The position numbers and the translations under genes were made by a program. Shown here piece by piece: positions 13,141 to 41,560 of a stretch of DNA of 64,000 nt (positions within the stretch are counted from its first letter, which is position 1; every line of letters starts with the position of its first letter). Location of the stretch: positions 1-64,000 of the forward strand of contig JAUCBJ010002907.1 of the NCBI GenBank assembly GCA_032718475.1. Reading direction: 5' to 3'. Origin of the DNA: Nemertoderma westbladi. Lineage: Eukaryota > Animalia > Xenacoelomorpha. A model generated the notes under the pieces. The model did no database searches. It was not told the DNA's origin and worked only from the letters and a program-made list of their open reading frames with translations.

Positions 13141-13319
13141 GTATACTCAGTATACTCAGTACACTTACACTAGACCTGTCATCCGCCTTTTATTGCACGA
13201 AATATGAAGTGTTATTCGAAAATTGAAAAAAACTGAATATATATTAGCATAAATATCATACGGTTACTAGAATCATATTACAGAAAATCTTCAGCCATCC
13301 TAGAAATTGGATCACTCAT

Positions 13320-16260: not shown

Positions 16261-16757
16261 AGGGCATAACTACAGTCTCTTCGAAATTACTCTATTCGAA
16301 ACACATCAATTCTCACACAAAACTACGAAAGAGAAAACAACCAAGTTAAGATTTTAGGTAGAGTTACTGGCAGTGTACTCTGTTAACAATGAAGCAGTTT
16401 GCTAAACTGGCAATAAACTAAATAAAATAAATGAAGCAGTTGTTAACAACTTTGGGTTAAATGTATTCAATCCGGACTCTTAGAATGCAATCAAGAGAAT
16501 TTATTTAATTAAAATCTTATTACTAAATGCATAATCTATTGTTTCGGAAATTTTTCGCGAAATAATTTATAATTTGACACCAGGGGCCCGTATGCTTAGT
16601 TTGTACTAGGGTAGTTCATACTTCATACTATGGTAGTTTGAACTAGTTCGTATGCTCATTCACTGACACTATAGTTTGAACTATAGTTCGTGCTTGTTTT
16701 GCTTAGCAAGCTCATTAGCAGGCTACCTAGCTAGTTTGGCGAATTTATTTTTAAAAA

Positions 16758-17823
16758 ATGGTAGCTTTTATGGATTTAAATGAGACAAAATAATAATCTA
16801 CATATAAACGAATATATAACCTTGTTGAGCACCCCTATGAAGTATTTCCTTGCGATAGATTGAACAGCAAACTAAAGGGACTATTCCGGTTTGATAAGGC
16901 GGGTATTGAATTCGTCACAGACTTGATTTGAGACAATATCATCACCATGGACAGCTGAAGAGGACTTCCGATTGCTCCTGAATTAAAAGTTATGATTGCT
17001 TTGCGCTACCTTGCTAGCGATTCACACCAGCTATCTATTGCCCACGCCTTCCACATTGACCAATGCACTGTTTCTAGACCTGTCAATGAAGTGATCGACA
17101 ATTTGGCCCCTTTAGTTGGAAAGTTTGTTTATTTTCCAACTGATCTCCAGCAACTTAAATCATTACAAACCAAGTTTTACCAAATGTGTCATTTTCCGCG
17201 AGTTGTTGGGGCAGTAGATGGTACCCATGTAAAGATTTCACCCCCAGCCGAACATGAGGCCTCCTATGTGAACAGAAAGGGAGAGACCACATTCAAATAA
17301 CGGCCAATATTGTCGCACACAGCCTGCCAGTGTGCGACAGTATTGGCCGTTATTTGAATGTGGTCTCTCGTTGGTCAGGATCTACTCATGATAGTTTCTG
17401 CTTGAAGGCCTTTCCTACTAATGGTGTCTTTCGCAATGTTGGAGGAATCATTCTCGGAGACAGCGGTTATCCGCTGAAGTCATTGCTAATGACACCGATA
17501 CCCCATCCAACAACTGACGCACATAAGAGATATAATTCTGCTCAGGAGAAAACTAGGGTGGTGGTCGAGCAGAGTTTTTTTTAAACTAAACGCCAATGGA
17601 ACATTCTACACGATGGAATTAGAATGCCAGTTGGTAAAGTACCAGTGGTGATTGGAGTTTGCTTCATGTTGAGAAATATTGCAATTGCGAGAGGGGGCTA
17701 GTAGGTAATTCGTATGGAGATGGATCGTAGATAATGTTGCTGTCGGATGCGATACCTACCACGGTGATTTATACAATGGGGGAGTTTATAGGAACCAGGT
17801 TGTTAATCAATACTTTTCTTGAA
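16758..17823 (+). pseudogene. PIF/Harbinger DDE nuclease (HARBI1-like transposase), degenerate
   Basis: Motifs ALRYLA, FPRVVGAVDGTHV, YVNRKG, GSTHDS, LGDSGYPL, YN..Q..TR.VVEQ; multiple stops and frameshifts. Confidence 0.9.
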
Positions 17824-18236
17824 TTTACAAATGTTACTTTTAACTATAAGAAATCACTACCTTTTTTATAGGGCACACACAACACACACTCTTAACTGCT
17901 GTAACTTTAGTTTATACACAATGTTGCTATGCAACGAATAGTAAACAGTCTAGTTATCAAGAAATATGTGGGCCCAATGCATGGCCTTCTAAACAACAGG
18001 TTGTTGTTTAGAATGCCATGGCCCAATGTCATAAACTCTGTTAATTGACTTCCCTATTTTTATACAGTCACCTAGCAACTAGTTAGACAGTGTGTAATTG
18101 TGAATAATAATATATAATTATATTAAATAATATTGTATAATAATATATAATTATATTAAATAATATTGTATAATAATATATAATAATAATAATATATATA
18201 TAATAATATAAAATTGAAAACGGCAGGGTAACTGTA

Positions 18237-18967
18237 TTACAAGTTGCGGATAATATGACCATCACTGTTGATATGATAGATTTCTGGCTCGATCTGAGTA
18301 ATTAGCTGGCGCGATTGAATGATAGTATCCAGCAACTCGAGTCCTTGGCCAACCAACTGCTGGATACATTCACAGGCACTGACCACTGCTTTATTAGCTT
18401 CTATAGTGGACTGATTGGCTTCTATCCGCGACTTTATTGCCTTTAACTGCAACTGGCGCAGATCCACATTTGTTTTCTGTGCTGCAGACATATTAAGGGC
18501 GGCTGCCTCCTCCCTGCGGATCTTCTTTCTCTTTGGTGGTTGTAGAGGGAGGACATTGGCCGAATTATGTAAGGAAGACTCCAGTGAGGTTCCAAACTTA
18601 CCCTCACCTGTGAACTTCTTCGAAGAGCCTAAAATGCTCATCACAGTATCGGTAGTCTGCGACACTGCCATAGGCACTGGTCCCCCACCCGTCTTGTTGC
18701 TTACCTTCTTGAATACTGCTACCTCTTCCTTTGACTTCATCATTGTTATTTCATTTCTTTTTAACTTGCCCCTCCAAAAAATTACCTCCCTCAGCATTCA
18801 AAGTGATGGAAGCCCAGGCATCGTTCCTTTTCTTCTGGTAACCACTAACCAGCCTTCTGCCCTTTACTGTTGATGTCGTTTTCTTTCACGCCATACAGTT
18901 CGATCAGTCTCATCTTTAGGTCACGTGTGAAGTATACCTTATCCACCCCTTTACCATCTGCATTCAT
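18237..18967 (-). pseudogene. Harbinger second gene (Myb/SANT-like DNA-binding protein), convergent with the nuclease
   Basis: N-terminal FT..LK.RLIEL...AWASI (frameshifted), then W..KLK...KTGGGP and a coiled-coil tail. This is the typical two-gene Harbinger layout. Confidence 0.7.
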
Positions 18968-19728
18968 GGTTGTAATAATATAAATAGACTGACTAGGCTT
19001 GAATACAGTTGTCTTTATTATAAAAAATAGTCACAAAAGTAAATCACTTTGAAACACTAAAACAATAGGTAGGCCCGAGTCAGTATATGCCATTGATGAC
19101 AGCAATGGTGAGAAAGTGAAAGTAAACAGAGTGTAACCTATCTGACAGTATCTGTATCTAATAAGCCTCCAAGTATGTAGGGCCTAGCATTCGTAAATGC
19201 GCCCAATACTTCTGACCAAGGCTATTTATTTACAAACATTCTAGAATACTGTAATATAAATAATATGATTTTATAATGAATTTTATTATGAAAAATTTTA
19301 TAATTTAATAGATTCAAAAAGATCGTGCGCACATGCATGTCGAACGCCGTTTTTGGTCCAAAATACTACGAAGTTATATTTATGATCTATTATAATGCAC
19401 GATTAAATCGTGTTTCCAAATCTGAAAACCGCTATTTAATAGCTCTTTTACTTTTCAAGTTATATAAATTTCCATTTAGGGAATCCTATTGAAATTACTA
19501 TTACTATGTATAATGAAAGGTCGATTATCTCCAAATATTTTTTTTATGATATTGTCACTAGCTAGTTTTTTTCTACTATCTTTTATAAATGTTAAAGAAC
19601 ACGTGTTAGCTATCAATTTTGATAAATATTTTTGTTCTAGAACACATTTTTTTCTAGAACATTTTTTGGGAAAAAATACCATCCTGCTGTTAGAAGGTCA
19701 AATATTTGTTCTAGAAAAAAACCTACAG

Positions 19729-19893
19729 TATCTGTATCCGGACAATTCGTACCCATCATGAAAAAATTCGGGTACGAATTATCTGTACGAATTGTCCGGG
19801 TATGGATTGACTGGGTATGGATTGTCCGGGTATGGATTGTCCACGTTCGAATTGACCGGGTACAAAGTGTCCGGGTACGAATTGTCTAACTTC
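19729..19893. mobile_element. MITE-like remnant with 15-bp subterminal repeats
   Basis: GGACAATTCGTACCC is followed by inverted tandem GGGTACGAATTGTCC units; same architecture as 45640-45994. Confidence 0.55.
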
Positions 19894-20365
19894 AGCTGCA
19901 ATGCAGCATGCTGATTATAGTAGTAGTTTAACTCTACTGCCTTTTTATATACTATTTTAATCACCAGACCTTTTATTAATTGATTAATGGGGCAGCATGT
20001 AACGACGATAAAAATAACCTAACTATTGAGGACGAGAAGTAGAAGGGAGATTTGTAATGTCCCAATTTCTAAAAAAAAAAAACAGCTTTCTGGAAGGTTG
20101 GTAATATTCCAGGCAGAAAATTATCAAAATCTCCAAGTCTTCCTGTTGAGATTCGAATAATTTCCGTACAAGCGAATCTAAACCTACTTATTTACAAATG
20201 TACACGGGGTTTGTGTAAGGGGCCTACCCGACAAGCCTTCATCTACATTATATAATCATTATGTACCAGGAACTTACTCAACTATATGAAAGTATGTATC
20301 AATTTGAATTATATTTTGTAGTAATAAATAGTTGATTAAATAAAATAATAGAAAAAAAAATAATG

Positions 20366-21500
20366 GAGGCCTACATTTAGGCGTATATACTTATTGAGTA
20401 CGCCTACATTTAGGCCTATATACTTATTGAGTACGGCTACATTTAGGCCTATATACTTGTTGAGTACGCCTACATTTAAGCCTATATACTTATTGAGTAC
20501 GCCTACATTTAGGCCTATATACTTATTGAGTACGCCTACATTTAGTAGGCCTATATACTTATTGAGTACGCCTACATTTAGGCCTATATACTTATTGAGT
20601 ACGGCTACATTTAGGCCTATATACTTGTTGAGTACGCCTACATTTAGGCCTATATACTTATTGAGTACGCCTACATTTAGGCCTATATACTTATTGAGTA
20701 CGCCTACATTTAGTAGGCCTATATACTTATTGAGTACGCCTACATTTAGGCATATATACTTATTGAGTACACCTACATTTAGTAGGCCTATATACTTATT
20801 AAGTACACCTACATTTAGTAGGCCTATATACTTATTGCGTACGCCTACATTTAGTAGGCCTATATACTTATTGAGTACGCCTACATTTAGTAGGCCTATA
20901 TACTTATTGAGTACACCGACATTTAGTAGGCCTATATACTTATTAAGTACACCTACATTTAGTAGGCCTATATACTTATTGAGTACGCCTACATTTAGGC
21001 CTATATACTTATTGAGTACGCCTACATTTAGGCCTATATACTTATTGAGTACGCCTACATTTAGTAGGCCTATATAATTATTGAGTACGCCTACATTTAG
21101 GCCTATATACTTATTGAATACACCTACATTTAGTAGGCCTATATACTTATTAAGTACAACTACATTTAGTAGGCCTATATACTTATTGCATACGCCTACA
21201 TTTAGTAGGACTATATACTTATTGAGTACACCTACATTTAGTAGGCCTATATACTTATTAAGTACACCTACATTTAGTAGGCCTATATACTTATTGCGTA
21301 CGCCTACATTTAGTAGGCCTATATACTTATTGAGTACGCCTACATTTAGTAGGCCTATATACTTATTGAGTACGCACACCTACATTTAGGCCTATATACT
21401 TATTGAGTACGTCTACATTTAGTACACCTATATACTTATTGAGTACGCCTACATTTAGTAGGCCTATATACTTATTGCGTACGCCTACATTTAGGCCTCA
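20366..21500. repeat. 33/36-bp minisatellite
   Basis: Unit AGGCCTATATACTTATTGAGTACGCCTACATTT(AGT). Confidence 0.95.
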
Positions 21501-22067
21501 CCAGACACACGTATACTCCTACATTTAGGCCTATATACTGTACTTGTTGACTACTCGTACATTTAGGCATATATACTTATTGAATACGCTTACATGTGGG
21601 CCTATATTCTCACGAGTAAAACAAATATTCTTTCTTGGGTAGCGGATCTAATGATGACCCACTTACCATGCCTTTCAATCATTCTATACAAAAGAAAGGC
21701 CCCGTTATCATAAAGCGTAGATTAGTGAAGCGGATACCACCTATCAATGATAATCACAAAAATAAAACGACAATTGATTACGGCCAGTACCGCGTTATTA
21801 CTGTTCCATATTTGATTATATAGACAGAATATTATCAGAAATGTAGAAAAAACAGTGTAACTTTCATGCAAAATGCATGTTAAATTATTAAATTGTAGCC
21901 CCGGGCCCTACATTATTTTGACTTATGTACATTCTCTTGAGACAGTTGCAAGGTCACGGAATAATACCAACATAGAAGTCCAGCCCTTGCATGTTCATTA
22001 GAGTATAAATTACTCACATTAGTGTATATGTATGTACTGTAAGTGTATCATTAGTGTATACTGCACA

Positions 22068-22373
22068 TTATAATGCATGTATGTCCTGCAGTATACATCT
22101 TCCAATGTCCTTTCTTACAAAGGCATGGACAAACTTGTAATTACAATAATCAATACAATTAATATCATCAATGACATTACCATGTTCATTGGTCATGTCA
22201 TTATAATCTAATAATTCCGGTACATGATTAACTTTGTTGCCTTCTTGGCGCCCTGGTGTTACATTGCCAGTGCATTGTGCAGTAAATTGGGTTTCAATTT
22301 CCGGGGTTCGTTTTTGTATGTTAAGGAGGTAGTAATGCCAGCTGATTTCATCAAGCAAAAATTCAACTGTAAC
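22068..22373 (-). CDS. Candidate terminal exon of an antisense Cys-containing protein (COLFI-like motifs, tentative)
   Basis: 101 stop-free codons of non-repetitive sequence after a CAG acceptor (weak polypyrimidine tract). Motifs QFTAQC, LLDYND, VIDDINC, RCILQDI. Confidence 0.35.
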   Translation of the reverse strand, partial: VTVEFLLDEISWHYYLLNIQKRTPEIETQFTAQCTGNVTPGRQEGNKVNHVPELLDYNDMTNEHGNVIDDINCIDYCNYKFVHAFVRKDIGRCILQDIHAL

Positions 22374-25300
22374 CTGTACTATGGATTCTCGTTTGATGTT
22401 ATGGTTAGACACTAGGATACCTTAACGCCACAGTAACCTGTACTATTGATTCTCGTTTGTTTGTTATGGTTAGACACTAGGATACCTTAACGCCACAGTA
22501 ACCTGTACTATTGATTCTCGTTTTTTGTTATGGTTAGACATTAGGATACCTTAACGCCACAGTAACCTGTACTATTGATTCTCGTTTTTTGTAACGCCAC
22601 AGTAACCTGTACTATTGATTCTCGTTTTTTGTTATGGTTAGACACTAGGATACCTTAACGCCACAGTAACCTGTACTATTGATTCTCGTTTTTTGTTATG
22701 GTTAGACACTAGGATACCTTAACGCCACAGTAACCTGTACTATTGATTCTCGTTTTTTGTTATGGTTAGACACTAGGATACCTTAACGCCACAGTAACCT
22801 GTACTATTGATTCTCGTTTTTTGTTATGGTTAGACACTAGGATACCTTAACGCCACAGTAACCTGTACTATTGATTCTCGTTTTTTGTTATGGTTAGATA
22901 CAAGGATACCTTAACGCCACAGTAACCTGTACTATTGATTCTCGTTTTTTGTTATGGTTAGACACTAGGATACCTTAACGCCACAGTAACCAGTACTATT
23001 GATTCTCGTTTTTTGTTATGGTTAGATACTAGGATACCTTAACGCCACAGTAACCTGTACTATTGATTCTCGTTTTTTGTTATGGTTAGATACTAGGATA
23101 CCTTAACGCCACAGTAACCTGTACTATTGATTCTCGTTTTTTGTTATGGTTAGATACTAGGATACCTTAACGCCACAGTAACCTGTACTATTGATTCTCG
23201 TTTTTTGTTATGGTTAGATACTAGGATACCTTAACGCCACAGTAACCTGTACTATTGATTCTCGTTTTTTGTTATGGTTAGACACTAGGATACCTTAACG
23301 CCACAGTAACCAGTACTATTGATTCTCGTTTTTTGTTATGGTTAGACACTAGAATACCTTAACGCCACAGTAACCTGTACTATTGATTCTCGTTTTTTGT
23401 TATGGTTAGACACTAGGATACCTTAACGCCACAGTAACCTGTACTATTGATTCTCGTTTTTTGTTATGGTTCGACACTAGGATACCTTAACGCCACAGTA
23501 ACCTGTACTATTGATTCTCGTTTTTTGTTATGGTTAGACACTAGGATACCTTAACGCCACAGTAACCTGTACTATTGCTTCTCGTTTTTTGTTATGGTTA
23601 GACACTAGGATACCTTAACGCCACAGTAACCTGTACTATTGATTCTCGTTTTTTGTTATGGTTAGACACTAGGATACCTTAACGCCACAGTAACCTGTAC
23701 TATTGATTCTCGTTTTTTGTTATGGTTAGACACTAGGATACCTTAACGCCACAGTAACCTGTACTATTGATTCTCGTTTTTTGTTATGGTTAGACACTAG
23801 GATACCTTAATGACACAGTAACCTGTACTATTGATTCTCGTTTTTTGTTATGGTTAGATACTAGGATACCTTAACGCCACAGTAACCTGTACTATTGATT
23901 CTCGTTTTTTGTTATGGTTAGACACTAGGATACCTTAACGCCACAGTAACCTGTACTATTGATTCTCGTTTTTTGTTATGGTTAGATACTAGGATACCTT
24001 AACGCCACAGTAACCTGTACTATTGATTCTCGTTTTTTGTTATGGTTAGACACTAGGATACCTTAACGCCACAGTAACCTGTACTATTGCTTCTCGTTTT
24101 TTGTTATGGTTAGACACTAGGATACCTTAACGCCACAGTAACCTGTACTATTGATTCTCGTTTTTTGTAACGCCACAGTAACCTGTACTATTGATTCTCG
24201 TTTTTTGTTATGGTTAGACACTAGGATACCTTAACGCCACAGTAACCTGTACTATTGATTCTCGTTTTTTGTTATGGTTAGACACTAGGATACCTTAACG
24301 CCACAGTAACCTGTACTATTGATTCTCGTTTTTTGTTATGGTTAGACACTAGGATACCTTAACGCCACAGTAACCTGTACTATTGATTCTCGTTTTTTGT
24401 TATGGTTAGACACTAGGATACCTTAACGCCACAGTAACCTGTACTATTGATTCTCGTTTTTTGTTATGGTTAGATACTAGGATACCTTAACGCCACAGTA
24501 ACCTGTACTATTGATTCTCGTTTTTTGTTATGGTTAGACACTAGGATACCTTAACGCCACAGTAACCTGTACTATTGATTCTCGTTTTTTGTTATGGTTA
24601 GACACTAGGATACCTTAACGCCACAGTAACCTGTACTATTGATTCTCGTTTGATGTTATGGTTAGACACTAGGATACCTTAACGCCACAGTAACCTGTAC
24701 TATTGATTCTCGTTTTTTGTTATGGTTAGACACTAGGATACCTTAACGCCACAGTAACCTGTACTATTGATTCTCGTTTGATGTTATGGTTAGACACTAG
24801 GATACCTTAACGCCACAGTAACCTGTACTATTGATTCTCGTTTTTTGTTATGGTTAGACACTAGGATACCTTAACGCCACAGTAACCTGTACTATTGATT
24901 CTCGTTTTTTGTTATGGTTAGATACTAGGATACCTTAACGCCACAGTAACCTGTACTATTGATTCTCGTTTTTTGTTATGGTTAGACACTAGGATACCTT
25001 AACGCCACAGTAACCAGTACTATTGATTCTCGTTTTTTGTTATGGTTAGATACTAGGATACCTTAACGCCACAGTAACCTGTACTATTGATTCTCGTTTT
25101 TTGATATGGTTAGATACTAGGATACCTTAACGCCACAGTAACCTGTACTATTGATTCTCGTTTTTTGTTATGGTTAGATACTAGGATACCTTAACGCCAC
25201 AGTAACCTGTACTATTGATTCTCGTTTTTTGTTATGGTTAGATACTAGGATACCTTAACGCCACAGTAACCTGTACTATTGATTCTCGTTTTTTGTTATG

Positions 25301-28300
25301 GTTAGACACTAGAATACCTTAACGCCACAGTAACCTGTACTATTGATTCTCGTTTTTTGTTATGGTTAGACACTAGGATACCTTAACGCCACAGTAACCT
25401 GTACTATTGATTCTCGTTTTTTGTTATGGTTCGACACTAGGATACCTTAACGCCACAGTAACCTGTACTATTGATTCTCGTTTTTTGTTATGGTTAGACA
25501 CTAGGATACCTTAACGCCACAGTAACCTGTACTATTGCTTCTCGTTTTTTGTTATGGTTAGACACTAGGATACCTTAACGCCACAGTAACCTGTACTATT
25601 GATTCTCGTTTTTTGTTATGGTTAGACACTAGGATACCTTAACGCCACAGTAACCTGTACTATTGATTCTCGTTTTTTGTTATGGTTAGACACTAGGATA
25701 CCTTAACGCCACAGTAACCTGTACTATTGATTCTCGTTTTTTGTTATGGTTAGACACTAGGATACCTTAATGCCACAGTAACCTGTACTATTGATTCTCG
25801 TTTTTTGTTATGGTTAGATACTAGGATACCTTAACGCCACAGTAACCTGTACTATTGATTCTCGTTTTTTGTTATGGTTAGACACTAGGATACCTTAACG
25901 CCACAGTAACCTGTACTATTGATTCTCGTTTTTTGTTATGGTTAGATACTAGGATACCTTAACGCCACAGTAACCTGTACTATTGATTCTCGTTTTTTGT
26001 TATGGTTAGACACTAGGATACCTTAACGCCACAGTAACCTGTACTATTGCTTCTCGTTTTTTGTTATGGTTAGACACTAGGATACCTTAACGCCACAGTA
26101 ACCTGTACTATTGATTCTCGTTTTTTGTAACGCCACAGTAACCTGTACTATTGATTCTCGTTTTTTGTTATGGTTAGACACTAGGATACCTTAACGCCAC
26201 AGTAACCTGTACTATTGATTCTCGTTTTTTGTTATGGTTAGACACTAGGATACCTTAACGCCACAGTAACCTGTACTATTGATTCTCGTTTTTTGTTATG
26301 GTTAGACACTAGGATACCTTAACGCCACAGTAACCTGTACTATTGATTCTCGTTTTTTGTTATGGTTAGACACTAGGATACCTTAACGCCACAGTAACCT
26401 GTACTATTGATTCTCGTTTTTTGTTATGGTTAGATACTAGGATACCTTAACGCCACAGTAACCTGTACTATTGATTCTCGTTTTTTGTTATGGTTAGACA
26501 CTAGGATACCTTAACGCCACAGTAACCTGTACTATTGATTCTCGTTTTTTGTTATGGTTAGACACTAGGATACCTTAACGCCACAGTAACCTGTACTATT
26601 GATTCTCGTTTGATGTTATGGTTAGACACTAGGATACCTTAACGCCACAGTAACCTGTACTATTGATTCTCGTTTTTTGTTATGGTTAGACACTAGGATA
26701 CCTTAACGCCACAGTAACCTGTACTATTGATTCTCGTTTGATGTTATGGTTAGACACTAGGATACCTTAACGCCACAGTAACCTGTACTATTGATTCTCG
26801 TTTTTTGTTATGGTTAGACACTAGGATACCTTAACGCCACAGTAACCTGTACTATTGATTCTCGTTTGTTTGTTATGGTTAGACACTAGGATACCTTAAC
26901 GCCACAGTAACCTGTACTATTGATTCTCGTTTTTTGTTATGGTTAGACACTAGGATACCTTAACGCCACAGTAACCTGTACTATTGATTCTCGTTTGTTT
27001 CTTATGGTTAGACACTAGGATACCTTAACGCCACAGTAACCTGTACTATTGATTCTCGTTTTTTGTTATGGTTAGATACTAGGATACCTTAACGCCACAG
27101 TAACCTGTACTATTGATTCTCGTTTTTTGTTATGGTTAGACACTAGGATACCTTAACGCCACAGTAACCTGTACTATTGATTCTCGTTTGATGTTATGGT
27201 TAGACACTAGGATACCTTAACGCCACAGTAACCTGTACTATTGATTCTCGTTTTTTGTTATGGTTAGACACTAGGATACCTTAACGCCACAGTAACCTGT
27301 ACTATTGATTCTCGTTTTTTGTTATGGTTAGACACTAGGATACCTTAACGCCACAGTAACCTGTACTATTGATTCTCGTTTTTTGTTATGGTTAGACACT
27401 AGGATACCTTAACGCCACAGTAACCTGTACTATTGATTCTCGTTTTTTGTTATGGTTAGACACTAGGATACCTTAACGCCACAGTAACCTGTACTATTGA
27501 TTCTCGTTTGATGTTATGGTTAGACACTACGATACCTTAACGCCACAGTAACCTGTACTATTGATTCTCGTTTTTTGTTATGGTTAGACACTAGGATACC
27601 TTAACGCCACAGTAACCTGTACTATTGATTCTCGTTTGTTTGTTATGGTTAGACACTAGGATACCTTAACGCCACAGTAACCTGTACTATTGATTCTCGT
27701 TTTTTGTTATGGTTAGACACTAGGATACCTTAACGCCACAGTAACCTGTACTATTGATTCTCGTTTGTTTGTTATGGTTAGACACTAGGATACCTTAACG
27801 CCACAGTAACCTGTACTATTGATTCTCGTTTTTTGTTATGGTTAGATACTAGGATACCTTAACGCCACAGTAACCTGTACTATTGATTCTCGTTTTTTGT
27901 TATGGTTAGACACTAGGATACCTTAACGCCACAGTAACCTGTACTATTGATTCTCGTTTGTTTGTTATGGTTAGACACTAGGATACCTTAACGCCACAGT
28001 AACCTGTACTATTGATTCTCGTTTTTTGTTATGGTTAGACACTAGGATACCTTAACGCCACAGTAACCTGTACTATTGATTCTCGTTTTTTGTTATGGTT
28101 AGACACTAGGATACCTTAACGCCACAGTAACCTGTACTATTGATTCTCGTTTTTTGTTATGGTTAGACACTAGGATACCTTAACGCCACAGTAACCTGTA
28201 CTATTGCTTCTCGTTTTTTGTTATGGTTAGACACTAGGATACCTTAACGCCACAGTAACCTGTACTATTGATTCTCGTTTGATGTTATGGTTAGACACTA

Positions 28301-29952
28301 GGATACCTTAACGCCACAGTAACCTGTACTATTGATTCTCGTTTGATGTTATGGTTAGACACTAGGATACCTTAACGCCACAGTAACCTGTACTATTGAT
28401 TCTCGTTTGATGTTATGGTTAGACACTAGGATACCTTAAAGCCACAGTAACCTGTACTATTGATTCTCGTTTTTTGTTATGGTTAGACACTAGGATACCT
28501 TAACGCCACAGTAACCTGTACTATTGATTCTCGTTTTTTGTTATGGTTAGACACTAGGATACCTTAACGCCACAGTAACCTGTACTATTGTTTCTCGTTT
28601 GATGTTATGGTTAGACACTAGGATACCTTAACGCCACAGTAACCTGTACTATTGATTCTCGTTTGTTTGTTATGGTTAGACACTAGGATACCTTAACGCC
28701 ACAGTAACCTGTACTATTGATTCTCGTTTTTTGTTATGGTTAGACACTAGGATACCTTAACGCCACAGTAACCTGTACTATTGATTCTCGTTTGTTGTTA
28801 TGGTTAGACACTAGGATACCTTAACGCCACAGTAACCTGTACTATTGATTCTCGTTTGTTTGTTATGGTTAGACACTAGGATACCTTAACGCCACAGTAA
28901 CCTGTACTATTGCTTCTCGTTTGTTTGTTATGGTTAGACACTAGGATACCTTAACGCCACAGTAACCTGTACTATTGATTCTCGTTTGTTTGTTATGGTT
29001 AGACACTAGGATACCTTAACGCCACAGTAACCTGTACTATTGCTTCTCGTTTGTTTGTTATGGTTAGACACTAGGATACCTTAACGCCACAGTAACCTGT
29101 ACTATTGATTCTCGTTTTTGTTATGGTTAGACACTAGGATACCTTAACGCCACAGTAACCTGTACTATTGATTCTCGTTTGATGTTATGGTTAGACACTA
29201 GGATACCTTAACGCCACAGTAACCTGTACTATTGATTCTCGTTTTTGTTATGGTTAGACACTAGGATACCTTAACGCCACAGTAACCTGTACTATTGATT
29301 CTCGTTTGATGTTATGGTTAGACACTAGGATACCTTAACGCCACAGTAACCTGTACTATTGATTCTCGTTTGTTGTTATGGTTAGACACTAGGATACCTT
29401 AACGCCACAGTAACCTGTACTATTGATTCTCGTTTGTTTGTTATGGTTAGACACTAGGATACCTTAACGCCACAGTAACCTGTACTATTGATTCTCGTTT
29501 GTTTGTTATGGTTAGACACTAGGATACCTTAACGCCACAGTAACCTGTACTATTGCTTCTCGTTTTTTGTTATGGTTAGACACTAGGATACCTTAACGCC
29601 ACAGTAACCTGTACTATTGATTCTCGTTTTTTGTTATGGTTAGACACTAGGATACCTTAACGCCACAGTAACCTGTACTATTGATTCTGGTTTTTTGTTA
29701 TAGTTAGACACTAGGATACCTTAACGCCACAGTAACCTGTACTATTGATTCTCGTTTGTTTGTTATGGTTAGACACTAGGATACCTTAACGCCACAGTAA
29801 CCTGTACTATTGATTCTCGTTTTTTGTTATGGTTAGACACTAGGATACCTTAACGCCACAGTAACCTGTACTATTGATTCTCGTTTTTTGTTATGGTTAG
29901 ACACTAGGATACCTTAACGCCACAGTAACCTGTACTATTGATTCTCGTTTTT
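22369..29952. repeat. 64-bp satellite, ~118 copies, highly homogeneous
   Basis: Unit GTAACCTGTACTATTGATTCTCGTTTTTTGTTATGGTTAGACACTAGGATACCTTAACGCCACA; three 40-bp truncated monomers. Confidence 0.97.
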
Positions 29953-30937
29953 TAACATTATAACAATTGTGTAAAAACTGTACATGGAGATTAAACTGCG
30001 ATTGTTTAACATTATAACAATTGTGTAAAAACTGTACATGGGGATTAAACAGCGATTGTTTAACATTATAACAATTGTTTAAAAACTGTACATGGGGATT
30101 AAACTGTGATTGTTTAACATTATAACAATTGTGTAAAAACTGTACATGGGGATTAAACTGCGATTGTTTAACATTATAACAATTGTGTAAAAACTGTACA
30201 TGGGGATTAAACTGCGATTGTTTAACATTATAACAATTGTGTAAAAACTATACATGGGGATTAAACTGCGATTGTTTAACATTATAACAATTGTGTAAAA
30301 ACTATACATGGGGATTAAACTGTGATTGTTTAATATTATAACAATTGTGTAAAAACTATACATGGAGATTAAACTGCGATTGTTTAACATTATAACAATT
30401 GTGTAAAAACTGTACATGGGGATTAAACTGCGATTGTTTAACATTATAACAATTGTGTAAAAACTGTACATGGGGATTAAACTGCGATTGTTTAACATTA
30501 TAACAATTGTGTAAAAACTGTACATGGGGATTAAACTGCGATTGTTTAACATTATAACAATTGTGTAAAAACTGTACATGGAGATTAAACTGCGATTGTT
30601 TAACATTATAACAATTGTGTAAAAACTGTACATGGGGATTAAATTGCGATTGTTTAACATTATAACAATTGTGTAAAAACTGTAGATGGGGATTAAATTG
30701 CGATTGTTTAACATTATAACAATTGTGTAAAAACTATACATGGAGATTAAACTGCGATTGTTTAACATTATAACAATTGTGTAAAAACTGTACATGGGGA
30801 TTAAATTGCGATTGTTTAACATTATAACAATTGTGTAAAAACTATACATGGGGATTAAACTGTGATTGTTTAACATTATAACAATTGTGTAAAAACTTTA
30901 CATGGGGATTAAACTGCAATTGTTTAACATTATAACA
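29953..30937. repeat. 54-bp tandem repeat, ~18 copies
   Basis: Unit AACATTATAACAATTGTGTAAAAACTGTACATGGGGATTAAACTGCGATTGTTT; directly abuts the 64-bp array. Confidence 0.95.
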
Positions 30938-31199
30938 TAAAAAATGACTTAGGAAATAAAGTCACCAAATAGGAAAACCCCCATAGAGAAATATTTAGCT
31001 TGGTGGTGTGCTTTATTACATTCTGATGAACAAAATACAGACAAACAAACATACATACTAGATTACATCAAACATGAAAAATGACATCGGGAATGAAATC
31101 ACCGCCTAGGAAAACCCCCGTAATTTTAACTACGTGGTATACTTCCATATTGCTAGACGTTATAATTCAATATTCTTACATATTTCTTATATATTCGTA

Positions 31200-32280
31200 C
31201 TTTATTATGGATCTACTCCAATCAGACATGTAGAGTCAAGTGGGAAAGTTCGGAGTCTGATTCATTCAATGTCTCCAATGGTGTCCGACAGGGATCTGTC
31301 GCCAGCCCTGTTTTGTTTTGTGTAGTTATGAATCCATTCCTTGAGGTCATCTCGAATTGGTTGCACAATAGGGTCGTTCTACTATGGAATCTTTGTATAC
31401 GCCGACGACATCCTTATTTTATGTCCATCTATTTCCAGTCTGCAGTACATGGTTGACATCTGTCAGAGATTTGCGTCCGACAATAAGTTATTAAAATTCA
31501 ACACTAGTCCCATTCCGACAAAATCGAAATCGAAATGCGTTCCGTTTGTTTCAGATTGGTCTGAACTGGCAGCCAAAATATCCCTCAATGGATCGCCATT
31601 ACCATGGGTAAAAGAGGCGCTCCATTTGGGAAACCTATTAGATTACAAATGCAATTTGGTGTCAGATACAATTAGGAACCGGGGACCATTTATTGGTAAA
31701 ATTAACAGTTTACGTCAGGAATTTTATTTTGAGGACCCTTATGATATATGTGAAATTCAACGCATTTATTCGACTGCGTTTTACAGAAGTAGTATATGGG
31801 ATTTATTTTCGGATATGTGCAATATAATTTTTACAGCTTGGAACATCAATGTTAGGCTTATTTTTGGGTTACCCTTTAATTCACATCGTTATTTAGTTGA
31901 TAAAATTTAGGCATCCTATGATAATGTTACTATCTCGTTATTTTCAGCTTATTAGTAACTTGTTTAAATCCTGTAAACCTAGTTTACTTTCCTTAACGGA
32001 GTTATGTTATTCAGACTGTGAAACACGTTACACAAAGTTCTTGTGTGAAACACAAGTTCTAATTTAAGGAACATAGCTAATTCTTGTGGTATCTCGTGCT
32101 TAAATAATCTTTCACTCAGCATAATAAACGCTCAAAGTTACGCACCGTTATTACCTGGTAATAAATGGAAACTCGATTTTTGTAGGGAACTTATAAATAT
32201 TCGAATTGGTAAATTGGAAGTTGATTATTTAGATACGGATGAGCTGTCAGACATTTTGAAATATATATCTACCAGTTAAA
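31200..32280 (+). mobile_element. CR1/L2-like LINE 3' fragment (RT)
   Basis: IGCTIG...GIFVYADDILIL, KSKC, HLGN in ORF 31341-31910, degenerate downstream; a (TAA)n tract lies at ~32822. Confidence 0.8.
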
Positions 32281-32442
32281 AGTGCTATAAAATTAATATC
32301 TATATAATTTCATATTTACTTAGTACTTTCCTGTTATATACTGTTTACGGTTAATTAATAATTTACCGGTCGTAGCTTATATCTTATCCTCCTTACCTTA
32401 CCTTTATTACTTGTGCTTATTCTATCTATAATTTGTCCTTGA

Positions 32443-32802
32443 CTGTACTTGTACTTGTACTGTGCTGTACTGTACTTGTACTGTACTGTGCTGTACTGTA
32501 CTTGTACTTGTACTTGTACTTGTACTTGTACTTGTACTGTACTGTACTGTGCTGTACTTGTACTTGTACTGTACTGTGCTGTACTGTACTTGTACTTGTA
32601 CTGTACTGTGCTGTACTGTACTTGTACTTGTACTGTACTGTACTGTGCTGTACTTGTACTTGTACTGTACTGTGCTGTACTGTACTTGTACTGTACTGTA
32701 CTGTACTGTACTGTACTTGTACTGTACTGTACTGTGCTGTACTTGTACTTGTACTGTACTGTGCTGTACTGTACTTGTACTGTACTGTACTGTGCTGTAC
32801 TT
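32443..32802. repeat. Compound (TGTAC/TGTACT/TGTGC)n microsatellite
   Basis: Read directly; it explains the three overlapping low-complexity ORFs. Confidence 0.95.
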
Positions 32803-33363
32803 GTGTCTTCTGATAATGTATGATAATAATAATAATAATTGATAGATCCCAGACAGATTATCAGTGGGAAGGTTTAAAAACTTTAATGGCCATTATCTCA
32901 GAATGACAATTTTCATCTTTATTTTTTTTTATTATGTATTAATATCATGAATAATAATTTATCTTTAAAGTACTACTCTTCTGCCATTTGTCAACCAAAT
33001 CTCATGATTCAAAGGGTTTTGGCAGTTATTTAACATTTATCTTATAGAATTTTTAAAAAATGTGTAATCAACTTTTTTTAATCAAAATTATTACATTAAT
33101 ATTAGCTAATTAAAAATTCTATAAGATAAATATTGTAGATTTAATTGTGCTTAATCTAAAAAAGTTGATTTCGAGAAATTTGGACCAAGATTGATGGACT
33201 AGTAGTGTTTTTAGTGAAAAAATAAATTCCACTAGGGGGAGGCTAAAATTTTCAAATATACAATTTTGATGTCTTAATGCCACTGTAACCTGTATTATTG
33301 ACTTTTTTTTGTTATGGTTAGAGACTGGGATGCCTTAATTCCATTGTAACCTGTATTATTGAC

Positions 33364-34420
33364 AACAGGATGACTTCTGTTGTCATCTTTATTGACTTCT
33401 TAAAGGCCTTCAATTCTGTCTATCGGTCACTTATGTTCAGCATACTTTCATTATATGGGATTCCTGATGAAAGTATTACAGCAATCAGATCAGTATACGA
33501 TGGTTCGACAACATTTGTGTCTACTGTTGACGGTGACGCAGAACCATTTGCAGTGTTATGGGGCGTCCTTCAGGGAGACACACTTGCACCATTATTGTTC
33601 ATAATTGTGGTTGTCTATGTTCTAAGCATGTCCTTAGATCATCATAATGATGATGGGGTGATGATAACTCCACCTACTGGCTCCAGAAGTCGAGGAAATC
33701 CAGCCAAGTACCTAACTAACTGATCTTGACTTTGCTGATGACTTAGGAGTACTCTCAGAATCATTAGAGGGAGCCCAACGGCTCCTCAGCTCATTAGAAC
33801 AGGCTGCTTCTAGTGTTGGTCTTTTTGTTAACTCCAAGAAGACCAAAGTTGAATGAATCATTCAAAAATGAATCATTGAATGATTCGGGTTTCCAAGATG
33901 TTGAAGTCACACAGAATACATAGGAAACTTGTCCATTTATTTAGAGCAGCAGTAGTTCCAGTACTCCTCTACGGGAGTCCATGCAGGGCTCTAACTGCTG
34001 AGGACACCAAATCTCTGGATGGCACATTCACAAGAATGCTACGCCGGGTTCATTGTGTCAAGTACAATGCACACATATCCAACCAGACACTATATAACAT
34101 TGGAGGTGTCTCATTGGTTCCTCCAAGCTTGACACTATAACAAAGCCGCCTCCCCTTTGCAGGACATTGCTTTCACCGTGAAGACCAGCCTGCGCACAAT
34201 CTTGTGCTTTGGGAGCCCCATGGAGAAAATATGCATGGTGGACAGACCATGACTTTTGTGAGACACCCCTTAAAGGACCCTGGCCTTGAAGATGCGGATA
34301 ATGTCGCCAAAGTCATGGGGTATAGGGGGTTGTGGTGGTGTAACTTTGTTGATAAGCCGGCATAGCATTCTTAATGGATGCTGCATTGAGCTAATCAATT
34401 GTGGATTGCATGGTGGTGGA
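33364..34420 (+). mobile_element. RTE-clade LINE fragment (RT to 3' end, internal deletion)
   Basis: FIDFLKAF, GVLQGDTLAPLLF, DFADD (33728-33742), VLLYGS; same family as the 8367 and 50246 copies. Confidence 0.88.
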
Positions 34421-35232
34421 AAAATATTTTCGTTTAAGCCAGCATAGAATCACAACGTGCAGCTTCAATCCAGCAGACCAATTTGTAGTAGTATTATAGT
34501 ATACAGCAATGCCACTGTGACCTGTTTTTTTCCTCAAATAGATGATTGGCATTGCTGATATGTCCAAATTGGATTTGCATCAATATGATATATTATTATA
34601 TTATTATGTGTTGGTACATTCGAGGTGTTGGTAAAGTCGAAGTTTTGGTAGATGGTTGAATAGTTGAAAGGCATTGGCAGTATTGTCACAATAACATGGT
34701 ACAGGTGGTGGTATCATGGTTTATATGACATGCCGAATCTATTACGGATTCTAATATAAAGGCAAAACACCGGTTTCTGATTTATTTCAGCACAAAGATA
34801 CTGCTTGTAATACGAAACCTGTTTTTGATGTTTGTGTTGCAACAAAATAATGGCATGACATTCGTATTTTATTGATTTCATTAAATTTGTTAGAAATGAA
34901 ACATACCTTTGCATTGCCAGTCCCAGAATTATATTATTTGCAATAAATTACCTTAAACCATTTTCCATCAACTGTAAGAGTTAGAATCAGTTCAGCGACA
35001 CTGATTGATTTATGTTTATGGTATTGAGGTCACTTACCATTCATTATACACTTTATGTAATAACGAACCTGTCTTTATACTGGGTAGTTTTTTTCTACAG
35101 CTGAGGCCGGCAAAAACAGTATGGATGGATGTATGTTTGTATGTATGTATATATGTTTGTTTGTATGTATGTTTTCTTTGTATCAAACCAACAAATTGCT
35201 TCAAACCACTTGTATGTATTGACTACCTGACA

Positions 35233-36715
35233 CTGACTACCATTAGCTGATCCTGTTTACATTCCTACTGATGGACTCTGAAACCAGCTGACTATTGTTA
35301 GCTGATCCTGTTTACATTCCTACTGATGGACTCTGAAACCAGCTGACTATTGATAGCTGATCCTGTTTACATTCCTACTGATGGCCTCCGAAACCAGCTG
35401 ACTACCGACTTGCTGATCCTGTTTACATTCTAGCTGATGGACTCTGAAACCAGCTGACTATTGTTAGCTGATCCTAATTACATTCCTAGTGATGGACTCT
35501 GAAACCAGCTGACTACCGTTAGCTGATCCTGTTTATATTCCTACTGATGGCCTCCGAAACCAGTTGACTAACGACTTGCTGATCCTGTTTACATTCCTAC
35601 TGATGGCCTACGAAACCAGTTGGCTACCATTAGCTGATCCTGTTTACATACCTACTGATAGACTCTGAAACCAGCTGACTACCGTTAGCTGATCCTGTTT
35701 ACATTCCTACTGATGGACTCTGAAACCAGCTGACTACCGACTTGCTGATCCTGTTTACATTCCTACTGATGGACTCTGAAACCATCTGACTATTGTTAGC
35801 TGATCCTGTTTACATTCCTACTGATGGACTCTGAAACCAGCTGACTACCGACTTGCTGATCCTGTTTACATTCCTACTGATGGCCTCCGAAACCAGCTGA
35901 CTACCGACTTGCTGATCCTGTTTACATTCCTACTGATGGACTCTGAAACCAGCTGACTACTGTTAGCTGATCCTGTTTACATTCCTACTGATGGACTCTG
36001 AAACCAGCTGACTACCGAATGCTGATCCTGTTTACATTCCTACTGATGGACTCTGAAACCAGCTGACTATTGTTAGCTGATCCTGTTCACATTCCTACTG
36101 AAGGACTCTGAAACCAGCTGACTACCGACTTGCTGATCCTGTTTACATACCTACTGATGGCCTACGAAACCAGCTGACTACCGTTAGCTGATCCTGTTTA
36201 CATTCCTACTGATGGACTCTGAAACCAGCTGACTATTGTTAGCTGATCCTGTTTACATTCCTACTGATGGACTCTGAAACCTGCTGACTATTGTTAGCTG
36301 ATCCTGTTTACATACCTACTGATGGCCTACGAAACCAGCTGACTACCGTTAGCTGATCCTGTTTACATTCCTACTGATGGACTCTGAAACCAGCTGACTA
36401 TTGTTAGCTGATCCTGTTTACATTCCTACTGATGGACTCTGAAACCAGCTGACTACCGACTTGCTGATCCTGTTTACATTCCTACTGATGGCCTCCGAAA
36501 CCAGCTGACTACCGACTTGCTGATCCTGTTTACATTCCTACTGATGGCCTCCGAAACCAGCTGACTACCGACTTGCTGATCCTGTTTACATTCCTACTGA
36601 TGGACTCTGAAACCAGCTGACTACCGACTTGCTGATCCTGTTTACATTCCTACTGATGGACTCTGAAACCAGCGGACTATTGTTAGCTGATCCTGTTTAC
36701 ATTCCTACTGATGGC
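35233..36715. repeat. 55-bp tandem repeat, ~27 copies
   Basis: Unit CTGACTACCGTTAGCTGATCCTGTTTACATTCCTACTGATGGACTCTGAAACCAG. Confidence 0.95.
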
Positions 36716-36939
36716 CTTTTTACAAGCTATTTTTTCCCGGTTTATTTATTATTATTAATGTCCTTACCATTCCACGTTCCAAATTTTATGGCTAACTTAC
36801 CTTATACAGTAATAATAAATTTTATAATTTCAATTATTTATTGACCCATGTTTTAATTTAATTATGTCATGTTTTACTGTACATCATGCCTTACCTGGCT
36901 TAATAAATAAAATATTATTATATATTATTATTAATGTTA

Positions 36940-38620
36940 CAGAACATCACCAAGCCTTATAATAATATAAAAGAAAACATACAGAACTCATACAGAAGTC
37001 CCTCACAACTGTTCGTAGATAATGAGACCATGTTGTCAGAAGAAGGATCAACACAGGGTGACCCACTGGCACTGGCGATGTATGGTGTTGGAACCCTTCC
37101 ACTAATAAAGCTAGTTGGTAAAGTGGCACACGATTTCGATCAGGAAAAATTTGGAGAAGACAAATTGTTGGAAAAATGGTTTGCAGATGACGGAAATGCA
37201 GCTGGCCGACTACAAACACTTCTAACATACTGGGATGCCATATGCTCCTATGGATCTGGATATGGTTATTCCCCGAACGCAATAAAAACATTTCTTATCG
37301 TGAAGGAAGGATTCATGAGTGAAGCTAAAACCATTTTTTGCTAACACTGGCGTACAACTAACCGAAGGTCATCGTGTACTAGGCTCAGTTATTGGGTCCC
37401 AATCATGCTGCTGCGATTATGTAAATGACAAAGTCCATTCACTGTTCGATCAGCTGGTTAAGCTTTGAGAATTCGCTGTAACAGCTCCTCAGCCATCCTA
37501 TAGTTGTCTCGTGTATGGCATGCAACCTAAGTTCAACTTCTTATCAAGAACAACCGCAATGGACCAAATTGATGACTTGATTACAGATCGGGTCATCCCA
37601 ACAATAACAGGTAATCCCCCTCCAGGTAAAATACAGCGCGATCTCCTCGCTCTGCCTGTCAGGGAGGGAGGTCTAGCAATATGAAGATCAACCGACCTTC
37701 ATCAGGGTATCCAGGCGTCCCGAAGATTATGTGCACCACTCTTTAGTGTTGACACCTGCTTAGAACCATCAGAAGCTCGTACAAAACAACAAACAATCCG
37801 CCGAGAAATAAAGAAAGATAGAATGGAAGGTGCGAAGGAAAGCGCCGAGGGCATCCACAGTAAGCTTAGCAACAGCGACCAATATCTCGGCCTACTATCT
37901 AAGGAAAAGGGAGCCTCTTCCTGGCTGACTGCACTACCCCTGACCAAATACGGTTACTCCCTACAAAAAGAAGCCTTCAGGGATGCACTGTGCTTGCGAT
38001 GTGGGTGGCAGCCACCAAAGCTTCCTTGACTATGTTCATGTGGGGCCGAACACTCCATATCGCATGTCTTACACTGTCCAACTGGTGGATACCCCAGCCT
38101 TCGCCCTAATGAGGTAAGGGACTACTTGGTGGAGTTATTAGCCTAGGTTTCTCATGACGTGCAGATAGAACCGCACCTTCAACCAGTGGGTGGTGAGCAG
38201 TTTAAACTGAGTAGTACCTCAACAGACCTGGATGCTCGACAGGATATGGCAGCTTCTGGCATATGGGGTGGATGCTTCCAGAAGCTCTTCATAGATGTGA
38301 AGGTTTTTAATCCACTTTGCGCATCCAACCCCAAGTCGATCAATGCAGCTTATACAAAGCATGAAAAGGATAAGCGCCGCAAATATGAAGAACGGATAAC
38401 TCTCATTGAACACGCATCCTTTACTCCATTTGTAATGTCAACTACAGGGGGAGCTGGCAGGGGTGCTCAGGCACTATTAAACAGAGTAGCACTCCTTCTA
38501 TCAGCAAAGCGGGGTGCTCCTTACTCCAAGACAGTGTCATTAATCCGTACACGTTTAAGCTTTGCGCTATTGCGCTCTTCAATAATGTGTTTGCGAGGCG
38601 CACGAGAACCACGATTAAAA
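36940..38620 (+). mobile_element. CRE-like non-LTR retrotransposon (RT, zinc knuckle, restriction-like endonuclease), degenerate and 5'-truncated
   Basis: EGSTQGDPLA, WFADDG, LPVREGGL, ASSWL, FRDALCLR, CSCG..HVLHC.TGG, RQDM...FIDVKV...KRRKY. Confidence 0.85.
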
Positions 38621-39344
38621 GGGTCCCGATTACTCTGCAGGAAACCGGAATACAGGCACCTACATCTGATGCCTGTATTAAAGTTTAAACAAGTCATCAC
38701 ACTCACTCCACAACTCGAATTCCCTTCACCATTCAACTTTTACTGTAGCTACTGTAGACATACATATTATTTGTGTTAGTATATTAAAGTTCTAGTTGGA
38801 GTTGCTGAGGTAAAACAATTAAAAAGAAAATAAAAAAAAATTTAGATTTTAAAATCGGAAGTATATTTAAAATAATATACAATATAAATTATGTTAAAAC
38901 AAATATTATACATTTAAATTGATAAAAAAGAAAACTGAAAATAATATTTTAAAATAATATTTTTACATGAAAAATTGACACTAGTTCACCAGGAACTGGT
39001 GTGTTATAGGTACAGCCCCTTCAAAATTTTTAATATAGCTACAGTAGTTTATGCTATTTTTTTTAGAACATATAAGCGGTACTAGTAGCATATATGTCTC
39101 AAATTTTTAATAATTTTTTTATCACCAATTTTCATTTTATTTATATATCGTCGATTGTATAAATTTTTGTTATCTCGTGTTTTTTTATGGAAGCTAGTAA
39201 AAATGTAAAAGCAATACATAATTATCCCCCCCATAATTGCAATGCAATGTTATGCAATTTGAACGTGTGTACTAACATACCTTACCTATGCCGCAAATCA
39301 AATATTCCGTAATTTCTAATTCGTAACTTTATTATTTAATGCAG

Positions 39345-39817
39345 GTGGTTCACTCAGCAGTTCTCGAGAAATAACTAATGACAGGGATCGCGATGTTTCA
39401 ACAATTTTAGCACGAAGATTAGTAGCGGATTTTCTACCCCGCCTCTACTTTATTCGAGATGGTGAGAGTGGCGATGGATACCCAGGAAACCAGCCAATTC
39501 ACAGTGATTCTTTAGTTGAACACTCGCAAATCTTTTTCAGAAACGTCCCAGGATTTGGCAAACGAAACGTCCCAGGATTTGGCAAACGAAACGTCCCAGG
39601 TTTTGGCAAACGAAACGTCCCAGGTTTTGGCAAACGAAACGTCCCAGGTTTTGGCAAACGAAACGTCCCAGGTTTTGGCAAACGAAACGTCCCAGGTTTT
39701 GGCAAACGAAACGTCCCAGGTTTTGGCAAACGAAACGTACCAGGGTTTGGCAAACGAAACGTCCCGGGGTTTGGCAAACGAAACGTCCCGGGGTTTGGTA
39801 AAAGAACAACATTCTGA
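39345..39817 (+). CDS. Neuropeptide precursor exon encoding 11x NVPGF-GKR (predicted NVPGFamide)
   Basis: Acceptor TTTAATGCAG ends at 39344. The phase-1 frame is open to TGA at 39815-39817. Eleven 24-nt units from 39542 each carry an amidation Gly plus KR, and all differences between units are synonymous. Confidence 0.9.
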
Positions 39818-40120
39818 GAATGACAAATCAAACCTACTTGGAACAGGTTAATAGGTAACTTGGGGTGCATCCAATGGTATTCTCACATTGATTTACTTTT
39901 CATTCGTCGACCCAACAAATTAAACTAAATTCGAGTTATTCAAAGAAACTGCAACATTATTTGGTTTCAATATTATATATTTTGCTGTTGTCATTTCGTG
40001 GTTTTGTGATAGTGGAAATTTGGAATGATATTATTATTAATATTATGATTAATTAACCTACAGCTGATTCAGCTTACGCTGTATCAGTAATAATTTATGG
40101 TTGATTTGTTTACATCCAAT

Positions 40121-40126
40121 AATAAA
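40121..40126 (+). promoter_or_regulatory. Candidate polyadenylation signal of the neuropeptide gene
   Basis: AATAAA ~300 nt after the stop codon, followed by T/GT-rich sequence. The AT-rich background lowers specificity. Confidence 0.35.
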
Positions 40127-40362
40127 TTTGTTTATTGTTATTTTCGTACAAATTGTTAAATCACTGACAAAAAATAATATCCACAGAAATTACTAGTGTT
40201 TGTTGTCTGAATTGCATGATCAGGTAGATGTATATAACTTATCAGTTGATTCTGAGTCAGAGTCATTATCGTGTATTAAGATTCATTAACATATGATTTG
40301 GCAAGCAATTAAGCATTATATAAACGACGTACAAATTCGACAGGTTCAAACATATAACTTAC

Positions 40363-40553
40363 GGATCCATAATGATCCAGGTTCCAGGTCCAAAGAATCC
40401 CGTTATCTCACTACATGTAACTCTAGCTGTGGCGGTTAATTCAAAGTGTTGTGTTACTCTACTCTCACTACCAATAATTTCATACATGACCACAGAACCA
40501 ACAAGGCTTAGGATGACATTTGCATAGCACCTCATATTTCGGTGCTGTAGCAT
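40363..40553 (-). CDS. Candidate first coding exon of the antisense gene (tentative)
   Basis: ORF with a hydrophobic N-terminal stretch, ending TARVTCSEITGFFGPGTWIIMDP at a perfect GTAAGT donor. Confidence 0.35.
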
Positions 40554-41560
40554 ATGCTCATAATTAATTGTGTAAATGCGACAAGTATCCCCACTGTCTT
40601 TAATTATGTTAAAAAAGCTTAATAAAAAAACAACGAAATTTATAAAACGTATCTTTATTCAATATATGTTTTGCATAACTATAATTCTGTAATTGAATAG
40701 CTCCAAAACAGCTCGGCCGGATGGTATTAATGTAGAACAAGTTTAACAATGAATCCTGCCGTTATTTCCAACACAACTTTTTAATTTATTATAATTTCGG
40801 TCGCCTTCAGGGCTCTTTATCAAAATTACCAGCAAATATTACCCACAAAATTACCAGAACCTACTGCACTAAAATATAAAATCAAATCTACAAACAGAAT
40901 TACTGAATTATCAGAATACAGTAATTATAACTTATAGCATCAATAATGCTAGTTGTTCTAATATAGGTACGACAATGTAGTAATTAAGGAAGGTCTGTGT
41001 ATGTGTATTCTACTGACATATCATGATATGCATAACAACAATATGACTTTAATGGAAGCAATAACAGCTGAAGCCTATACGCCATACAAATGACAGACTG
41101 CAACTGGCTTAGACAACAGGTAACAGTGTAAGTAATGTGAGCATATCACAGTATTATATTAATGTTACAGGCACCCGAATAGATAGTGGTTGAAGATTCA
41201 AATTTATATCACACGGCCTGACTGCAACTGAGGACTGTATAATTAACCCTTACAACTGTAACCTATGAACAACAACTTCTATATGCCCATCACTGCCGCA
41301 TTTTAATTGTGATAAAAACGCAAACGGGTTAGGATGAGTATGAGGAGGTTGAACTGTTGAGAATATCGCAGGCAAACTTGGTCAGTAAATCTAAGATCTA
41401 AACCACCGGCCATCTTTTAACGGGTATGAAGGACGTAAGTTTTCTTAATACTATGTTTTCTTGGAGTTTTTCTGCTGATAAAAAGCATCGACTTTCTTTG
41501 GCTTAGAATGGTAAAAAGCATCGACTTTCAAAATCTTCCTTTGGCTTAGAAGTAAAAATT

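Follow-up and report, generated by a model that had tools for sequence, protein, structure and literature searches.

A putative multi-copy precursor of the predicted amidated pentapeptide NVPGF-amide in a satellite-rich stretch of Nemertoderma westbladi DNA

Multi-copy amidated peptides are released by a textbook pathway in which signal peptidase, prohormone convertase, carboxypeptidase and PAM amidation act on the precursor. In the consensus of allatostatin-A/buccalin peptides, a G-hydrophobic-amide end is preceded, some five positions earlier, by one or more aromatic residues. Phoronid allatostatin-A precursors, in the passages displayed from survey supplements, include copies that end in PGF-amide and carry acidic spacers. 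APGWamide/RGWamide precursors have many contiguous x-P-G-aromatic-G-K-R copies with an amidated aromatic end (PMC8557429 and PMC5996578; P0036, P0061, P0090, P0130). Most members of this family have two C-terminal Cys residues 20–30 residues apart, with a phase-0 intron between them, according to PMC8557429. Achatins are marked by a D-amino acid at the aromatic residue and an achatin-type receptor (PMC5818035); the precursors displayed for Xenoturbella bocki and X. profunda have Asn before KR and hold five copies of the non-amidated GFGN. Among xenacoelomorphs there are also the orphan peptides LxFamide, PxFVamide, FxxxFamide and MxGFG, which are short, dibasic-cleaved and often amidated repeats (PMC6188537 and 10.1101/265579, in the parts seen). 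Lineage-specific multi-copy peptides are common, one survey having added 14 types (PMC6188537, in part), and YPGF-NH2 is mentioned in the displayed text of an opioid review (PMC10548835).

Here we analyze a locus in a stretch of 64,000 nucleotides, which we call the window. Its exon at 39345–39817 encodes eleven NVPGF-G-KR units and, together with a candidate signal exon, would give a secreted precursor of NVPGF-amide, likely a neuropeptide, that we can assign to no family; we put the probability of this reading at roughly 85%. The contiguous copies and the amidated aromatic end are as in APGWamide/RGWamide precursors, but the window precursor has Phe for Trp, a pentapeptide for a tetrapeptide and an unrelated pro-region. 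It has eleven copies where the Xenoturbella achatin precursors have five, shares the PGF-amide end with the phoronid copies but not their acidic spacers, and has an xxPGFamide motif that none of the four xenacoelomorph orphan peptides shows in the parts of those sources displayed.

The repeat array and its reading frame

The features of the proposed gene, all on the + strand, are as follows.

6860..6894, + strand: CTAAT branch-like motif (6860–6864), pyrimidine tract and AG acceptor; 14 of 20 pyrimidines plus the branch motif
6895..6994, + strand: likely first coding exon, proposed from an ATG, a hydrophobic stretch and a strong donor
6995..39344, + strand: putative phase-1 intron of 32,350 bp, with satellites (11,749 bases in counted arrays) and decayed LINE and DNA-transposon fragments
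39316..39344, + strand: CTAAT branch-like motif (39316–39320), T-rich tract and tgcAG acceptor; 12 of 20 pyrimidines plus the branch motif
39345..39541, + strand: pro-region of 65 residues with no Cys and one RR site, its last residue a single Arg before copy 1
39542..39805, + strand: eleven NVPGF-G-KR repeat units; six of six variant alleles silent
39806..39817, + strand: three-residue tail (TTF) and TGA stop, in the open frame
39818..40626, + strand: probable 3' UTR; its candidate poly(A) signals, ATTAAA at 39919 and AATAAA at 40121 and 40621, are motif matches in AT-rich DNA

The + frame from 39320 to 39817 is open and runs from the pro-region through eleven NVPGFGKR units to TTF and the stop, in agreement with the original prediction. 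The first whole codon of the exon begins two bases past 39345, so that plain translation from that position gives another frame. The array has a period of 24, 11.1 copies and 97% matches, and all eleven of its 24-bp units end in G-K-R. The count of eleven copies given in the original prediction stands; its description of KR flanks on both sides applies to ten of them, since copy 1 follows a single Arg.

The units differ at five sites, where there are six distinct variant alleles in all, the same alleles that had been listed as silent at the outset. All six are silent in the NVPGFGKR frame, compared with 0, 0, 1, 3 and 0 of six in the other five frames. Approximately 26% of possible single changes in this frame are silent, which gives a naive chance of 3.4e-4 for six out of six and about 1e-3 once any of the six frames is allowed, for alleles that are few and have all arisen within one homogenised array. 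Seven arrays elsewhere in the window with a period divisible by 3 served as controls. Only two have at least four variants, with at best 5/10 and 2/4 silent; the remaining ones show 1/2 silent in two arrays with two variants and 1/1 in another, and two are uninformative. The NVPGFGKR copies are conserved at the protein level. The peptide-exon frame is also the only stop-free stretch of at least 40 aa in the window that carries at least two G-[KR]-[KR] motifs.

Gene model and predicted product

The peptide exon starts at 39345, the first base past an AG, with CTAAT 25–29 nt upstream, and its frame requires a phase-1 partner. The pyrimidine content of this acceptor, 12 of 20, is just below the cut-off of 13 used for counting; at that cut-off, with the branch motif, 18 of 1284 YAG sites pass, including the AG at 6893–6894. 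CTAAT is present at both acceptors.

Scanning the + strand from 1 to 39344 for an ATG, a hydrophobic stretch and a donor returned 15 candidates under loose cut-offs, and raising the donor threshold to at least 8 bits left one donor in any phase, that of 6940–6994, which is in phase 1. The exon that contains it (6895–6994) has a 45-nt 5' UTR with an in-frame TAA at 6919–6921, a start codon at 6940 with A-rich surroundings and 18 codons of hydrophobic, signal-like peptide leading to the phase-1 donor AAG/GTGAGG. This donor ranks third among 2433 GT sites, as scored with a generic donor matrix. Because an acceptor precedes 6895, a non-coding exon further 5' is implied. Of 40 simulated sequences, eight yielded a phase-1 candidate when the cut-offs were relaxed and none when they were strict, the strict values having been set after the result, just under those observed. 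Three weaker signal-exon candidates lie on the minus strand, and chance candidates do occur. The other candidates on the + strand were rejected, having weak donors (4.1–5.9 bits) and lying mostly inside satellites or TEs.

Judged by hydropathy, the phase-matched upstream exon likely supplies an N-terminal signal peptide, the n-region of which has no basic residue. From the splice motifs and phase, it is likely that exon 6895–6994 is spliced to 39345–39817 across 32,350 bp. Joining 6940–6994 to 39345–39817 yields a 175-residue precursor that is free of Cys beyond the signal peptide. The original prediction of a spliced exon that has no ATG of its own is strengthened by the phase-matched signal exon. 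ATG-based ORF calling misses the precursor, the likely start codon of which is 32 kb distant.

The intron may contain small additional exons; one symmetric internal-exon candidate was found, at 12462–12854, and was rejected because it lies within a LINE-like frame. Inside the pro-region there is a donor-like site, ATG/GTGAGA, after 39461 (39462–39467; phase 1, 8.2 bits). If used, it could give a 117-bp exon that holds no peptide copies, or a splice to a peptide exon outside the window. From 39462 to the stop no donor exceeds 3.3 bits, so the TTF tail is probably real.

The window as a whole has a GC content of 28–45%, few genes and many satellites and LINEs, as would fit a large invertebrate genome. 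Besides reverse transcriptase, DDE and other transposon debris, the putative intron holds a 7.6-kb array of a 64-bp satellite followed directly by a 54-bp satellite (22369–30937); a 90-bp sequence related to the 64-bp unit, but diverged from it, sits at the edge of a LINE fragment (33273–33362). A decayed PIF/Harbinger-like element (16580–19200) has a DDE_Tnp_4 transposase on the + strand (16959–17584) and a second ORF on the minus strand (18237–18797) with no Pfam match. Approximately 560 bp 5' of the peptide exon ends a decayed non-LTR retrotransposon (36907–38779; reverse transcriptase in the Atlas, 0.97), which by its motifs we take to be CRE-like. The 3' end of an RTE-like LINE occurs in five copies (8368–8770, 33881–34419, 48474–48636, 50247–50806 and 62470–62923) that are 80–98.5% identical, which points to a family that is both young and abundant. 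The bins with two LINE clusters are depleted of CpG (observed/expected 0.35–0.38), a hint of TE methylation. A Foldback-like Mutator element (52112–58947) holds MULE transposase fragments (53824–54879, Pfam MULE) flanked by inverted arrays, each about 1.3–1.4 kb, of a 15–17-bp unit. A THAP-domain fragment at 49313–49768 (Pfam PF05485, above cut-off) is probably a P-element-type remnant. A dispersed 200-bp repeat (5035–5231 and 41556–41790, 79% identical) adjoins a tRNA-box-like motif and is possibly a SINE. Searches with the transposon sequences pointed to no taxon: the best protein match reached 40% identity, the taxa recorded for the Atlas matches were two diatom entries, and genome and viral contigs gave no match. 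The Rfam scan returned sub-threshold hairpin matches only, and the tRNA scan returned none.

A locus in such surroundings could in principle be a non-coding minisatellite or a dead gene with an accidental likeness to a precursor. Satellites and TE debris fill the window, all six frames of the 24-bp unit are stop-free, and no homologue appeared among the best 150 of 613 HMMER matches in the protein searches, all of which would suit that explanation. However, chance would have to bring together silent-only variation, perfect G-KR spacing, a unique open pro-region of 65 codons, the acceptors and a phase-matched signal exon, and we consider it highly unlikely. Going by its sequence features, the locus is very likely a real, previously unannotated precursor gene.

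For such a gene the predicted route to the peptide is the standard one. The precursor would enter the secretory path via its signal peptide, with a signal peptidase cut near residue 19; prohormone convertase would cut after each KR, carboxypeptidase would trim the basic residues, and PAM (PHM/PAL) would turn the Gly into a C-terminal amide, giving NVPGF-amide with a calculated MH+ of 532.288. Each precursor would yield ten pentapeptide copies plus the first copy, released either by monobasic cleavage or with an N-terminal extension. The context of monobasic cleavage described in PMC8557429 is a second basic residue 3–6 positions upstream. The single Arg before copy 1 has no such partner, and copy 1 may therefore come off extended. 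Pro as the third residue would make the peptide slower to yield to aminopeptidases, and further trimming could leave VPGFa or GFa. By analogy alone, the peptide would be released from neurons or endocrine cells and its target would most likely be a rhodopsin-type GPCR. The repeat would most likely lift output per transcript, and its uniformity would come from tandem homogenisation under purifying selection.

G-[KR]-[KR] repeats, a candidate signal peptide and copy conservation are all present, and the locus thus very likely belongs to the general class of multi-copy amidated neuropeptide precursors. This supports the original prediction of a multi-copy precursor of NVPGF-amide, to which the signal-peptide exon adds strength. 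A gland or gut peptide would give the same picture as a neuropeptide.

Relationship to described families

HMMER searches against 1.84 billion representatives gave 613 matches, of which the best 150 are mostly unrelated repeats. None of these 150 carries at least two GFG-K/R motifs; the nearest dibasic-cleaved proteins among them are neuropeptide precursors, and the closest true precursors are of the APGWamide type (12 of the 150). A true xPGFGKR orthologue should outscore the best 150 of the 613 matches, so none seems to be present in the library searched. Other multi-copy amidated precursors among the HMMER matches are P0145 (with P0160–P0163), P0014–P0016, P0096 and P0123; this set includes nine SPFL-amide copies with a Cys-rich pro-region, very long MHF/MSF-amide precursors (up to 51 G-dibasic sites) and GYARF-amide.

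In the ESM Atlas, all ten of the matches listed are neuropeptide or peptide-hormone precursor clusters, with scores of 0.82–0.87 that lie below the 0.9 threshold at low recognition (1250) and serve as a lead only. A word search of proteins of 85–273 aa returned six matches among 3636 candidates, with E values of 0.02–0.6 and 35–41% over less than half the query, which we attribute to chance; presumably they are insect NPLP1-like. The pro-region matched 0 of 83 longer proteins. Pfam gave nothing above cut-off for the precursor, only a sub-threshold Cornifin match on the repeat (23.7 bits against 34.8), the PDB search gave no matches, and the protein collection searched holds no entry identical to the exon protein. 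Of the metagenome scans for tandem xxPGFGKR, one found none and the other three chance loci with no tandem precursor in the frames listed.

Nor did we find a description of an NVPGFamide or PGFamide precursor in the full-text literature, although one may exist in subscription papers, figure images or bioRxiv supplements. The one paper listed for NVPGF is on selenoproteins, and the eight listed for PGF-NH2 variants do not, by their titles, concern this peptide. VPGF occurs 0 times in the PMC6188537 supplement as far as displayed, and the supplements of PMC9793003 (crinoids) and PMC9525235 (ctenophore, cnidarian) contain no match to the peptide motif. The peptide had not been recognised when the locus was first noticed, and this held through the precursor searches of databases, papers and supplements.

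The original prediction pointed to APGWamide and RGWamide precursors. The likeness holds for the layout and for the rank of the APGWamide precursors as nearest true HMMER matches, but kinship is unlikely given the missing Trp and Cys pair and the dissimilar pro-region. Specifically, descent from an APGWamide/RGWamide orthologue, acting on an RGWamide-type receptor, would require a change of W to F, an extra N-terminal residue and loss of the Cys tail. The units do share P-G-aromatic-G-K-R. P0061, a Pomacea canaliculata cerebral peptide 1-like model, aligns at 39% and has a three-residue tail free of Cys, so not every database model carries a Cys tail. Across the 12 APGWamide matches the tail holds two Cys in seven, one in three and none in two; the window precursor has none. 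All eleven of its copies are GF-amide rather than GW-amide. The phase-0 intron between the Cys residues has no counterpart, the only intron proposed being in phase 1 at the end of the signal peptide, and the window contains neither a strong donor before the stop nor a Cys-pair exon downstream. With the peptides masked, the pro-region is no more similar to 11 of the 12 APGWamide precursors than shuffled sequence is (96–472 of 500 shuffles score as high), the remaining precursor being equalled by 10 of 500. Finally, the first copy follows KR in all 12 APGWamide precursors and a single R in the window precursor. We regard an APGWamide/RGWamide origin as unlikely.

PGFG is shared more exactly by the Xenoturbella-type achatin and the phoronid allatostatin-A precursors than by APGWamide. 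The former represent a rival kinship absent from the original prediction: a derived precursor in which xP-GFGN-KR became xxP-GF-G-KR, thereby creating an amidation site. In the PMC6188537 supplement, as far as displayed, all five places with PGFG lie in two Xenoturbella achatin precursors with 8-residue xPGFGNKR units. The window unit keeps the seven constant residues of xPGFGNKR, with Asn after KR instead of before it. By eye, the displayed precursors and the window precursor also have a common layout of a signal peptide, a spacer of about 60 residues, a single Arg and a contiguous C-terminal run with no tail; this layout, with the xP extension, is a trait of the lineage and not of the family. 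A Branchiostoma achatin precursor in the same partly displayed supplement has one GFG-KK copy. Against this, the NVPGFGKR units lack the tetrapeptide GF-x-[N/D/E] before KR, their GFG directly preceding it, whereas the achatin precursors displayed from the supplement all keep the fourth residue before KR. Achatins are non-amidated, and a four-residue match can be chance. A derived achatin precursor is in our judgment improbable, as is the step it entails, in which Asn moved across KR and an ancient non-amidated D-amino-acid tetrapeptide became an amidated pentapeptide. If true, this would be an example from nature of a conserved ligand of bilaterians taking on a different chemistry.

Alternatively, the peptide could be a shortened form of the allatostatin-A/buccalin type. 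PGFGKR occurs at 27 places in the PMC8557429 supplement, and the 23 examined all belong to phoronid allatostatin-A; it also occurs at three places in each of files 3 and 4 of the PMC6425005 supplement, where the passages displayed are the same phoronid sequence. The top ESM Atlas cluster among the matches listed is helicostatin/allatostatin (0.87, a lead only). The phoronid peptides, however, are 10-mers that differ from copy to copy, with two neighbouring aromatics five and six residues before the end, whereas NVPGF has five residues, begins with Asn, lacks an upstream aromatic and is identical in all copies. This origin appears very unlikely.

In the surveys consulted in part, including 10.1101/2021.03.03.433790, PMC8557429 and PMC6188537, no described family agrees in full with the NVPGFamide precursor. 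The most likely family reading, which we hold at about an even chance, is that the gene founds an undescribed, lineage-restricted family. The surprise is moderate, as the pathway is textbook and orphan multi-copy peptides are frequent in little-studied invertebrates. For a peptide with no match in the databases or papers searched, the analysis provides an exact mass and a proposed model of the complete gene. Should the family be undescribed, the peptide would offer a ready ligand for an orphan GPCR; should the peptide instead be an amidated achatin or an APGWamide with W replaced by F, it would illustrate how conserved ligands can change. By analogy, the precursor would work in the same way as those of APGWamide, FMRFamide and other multi-copy peptides.
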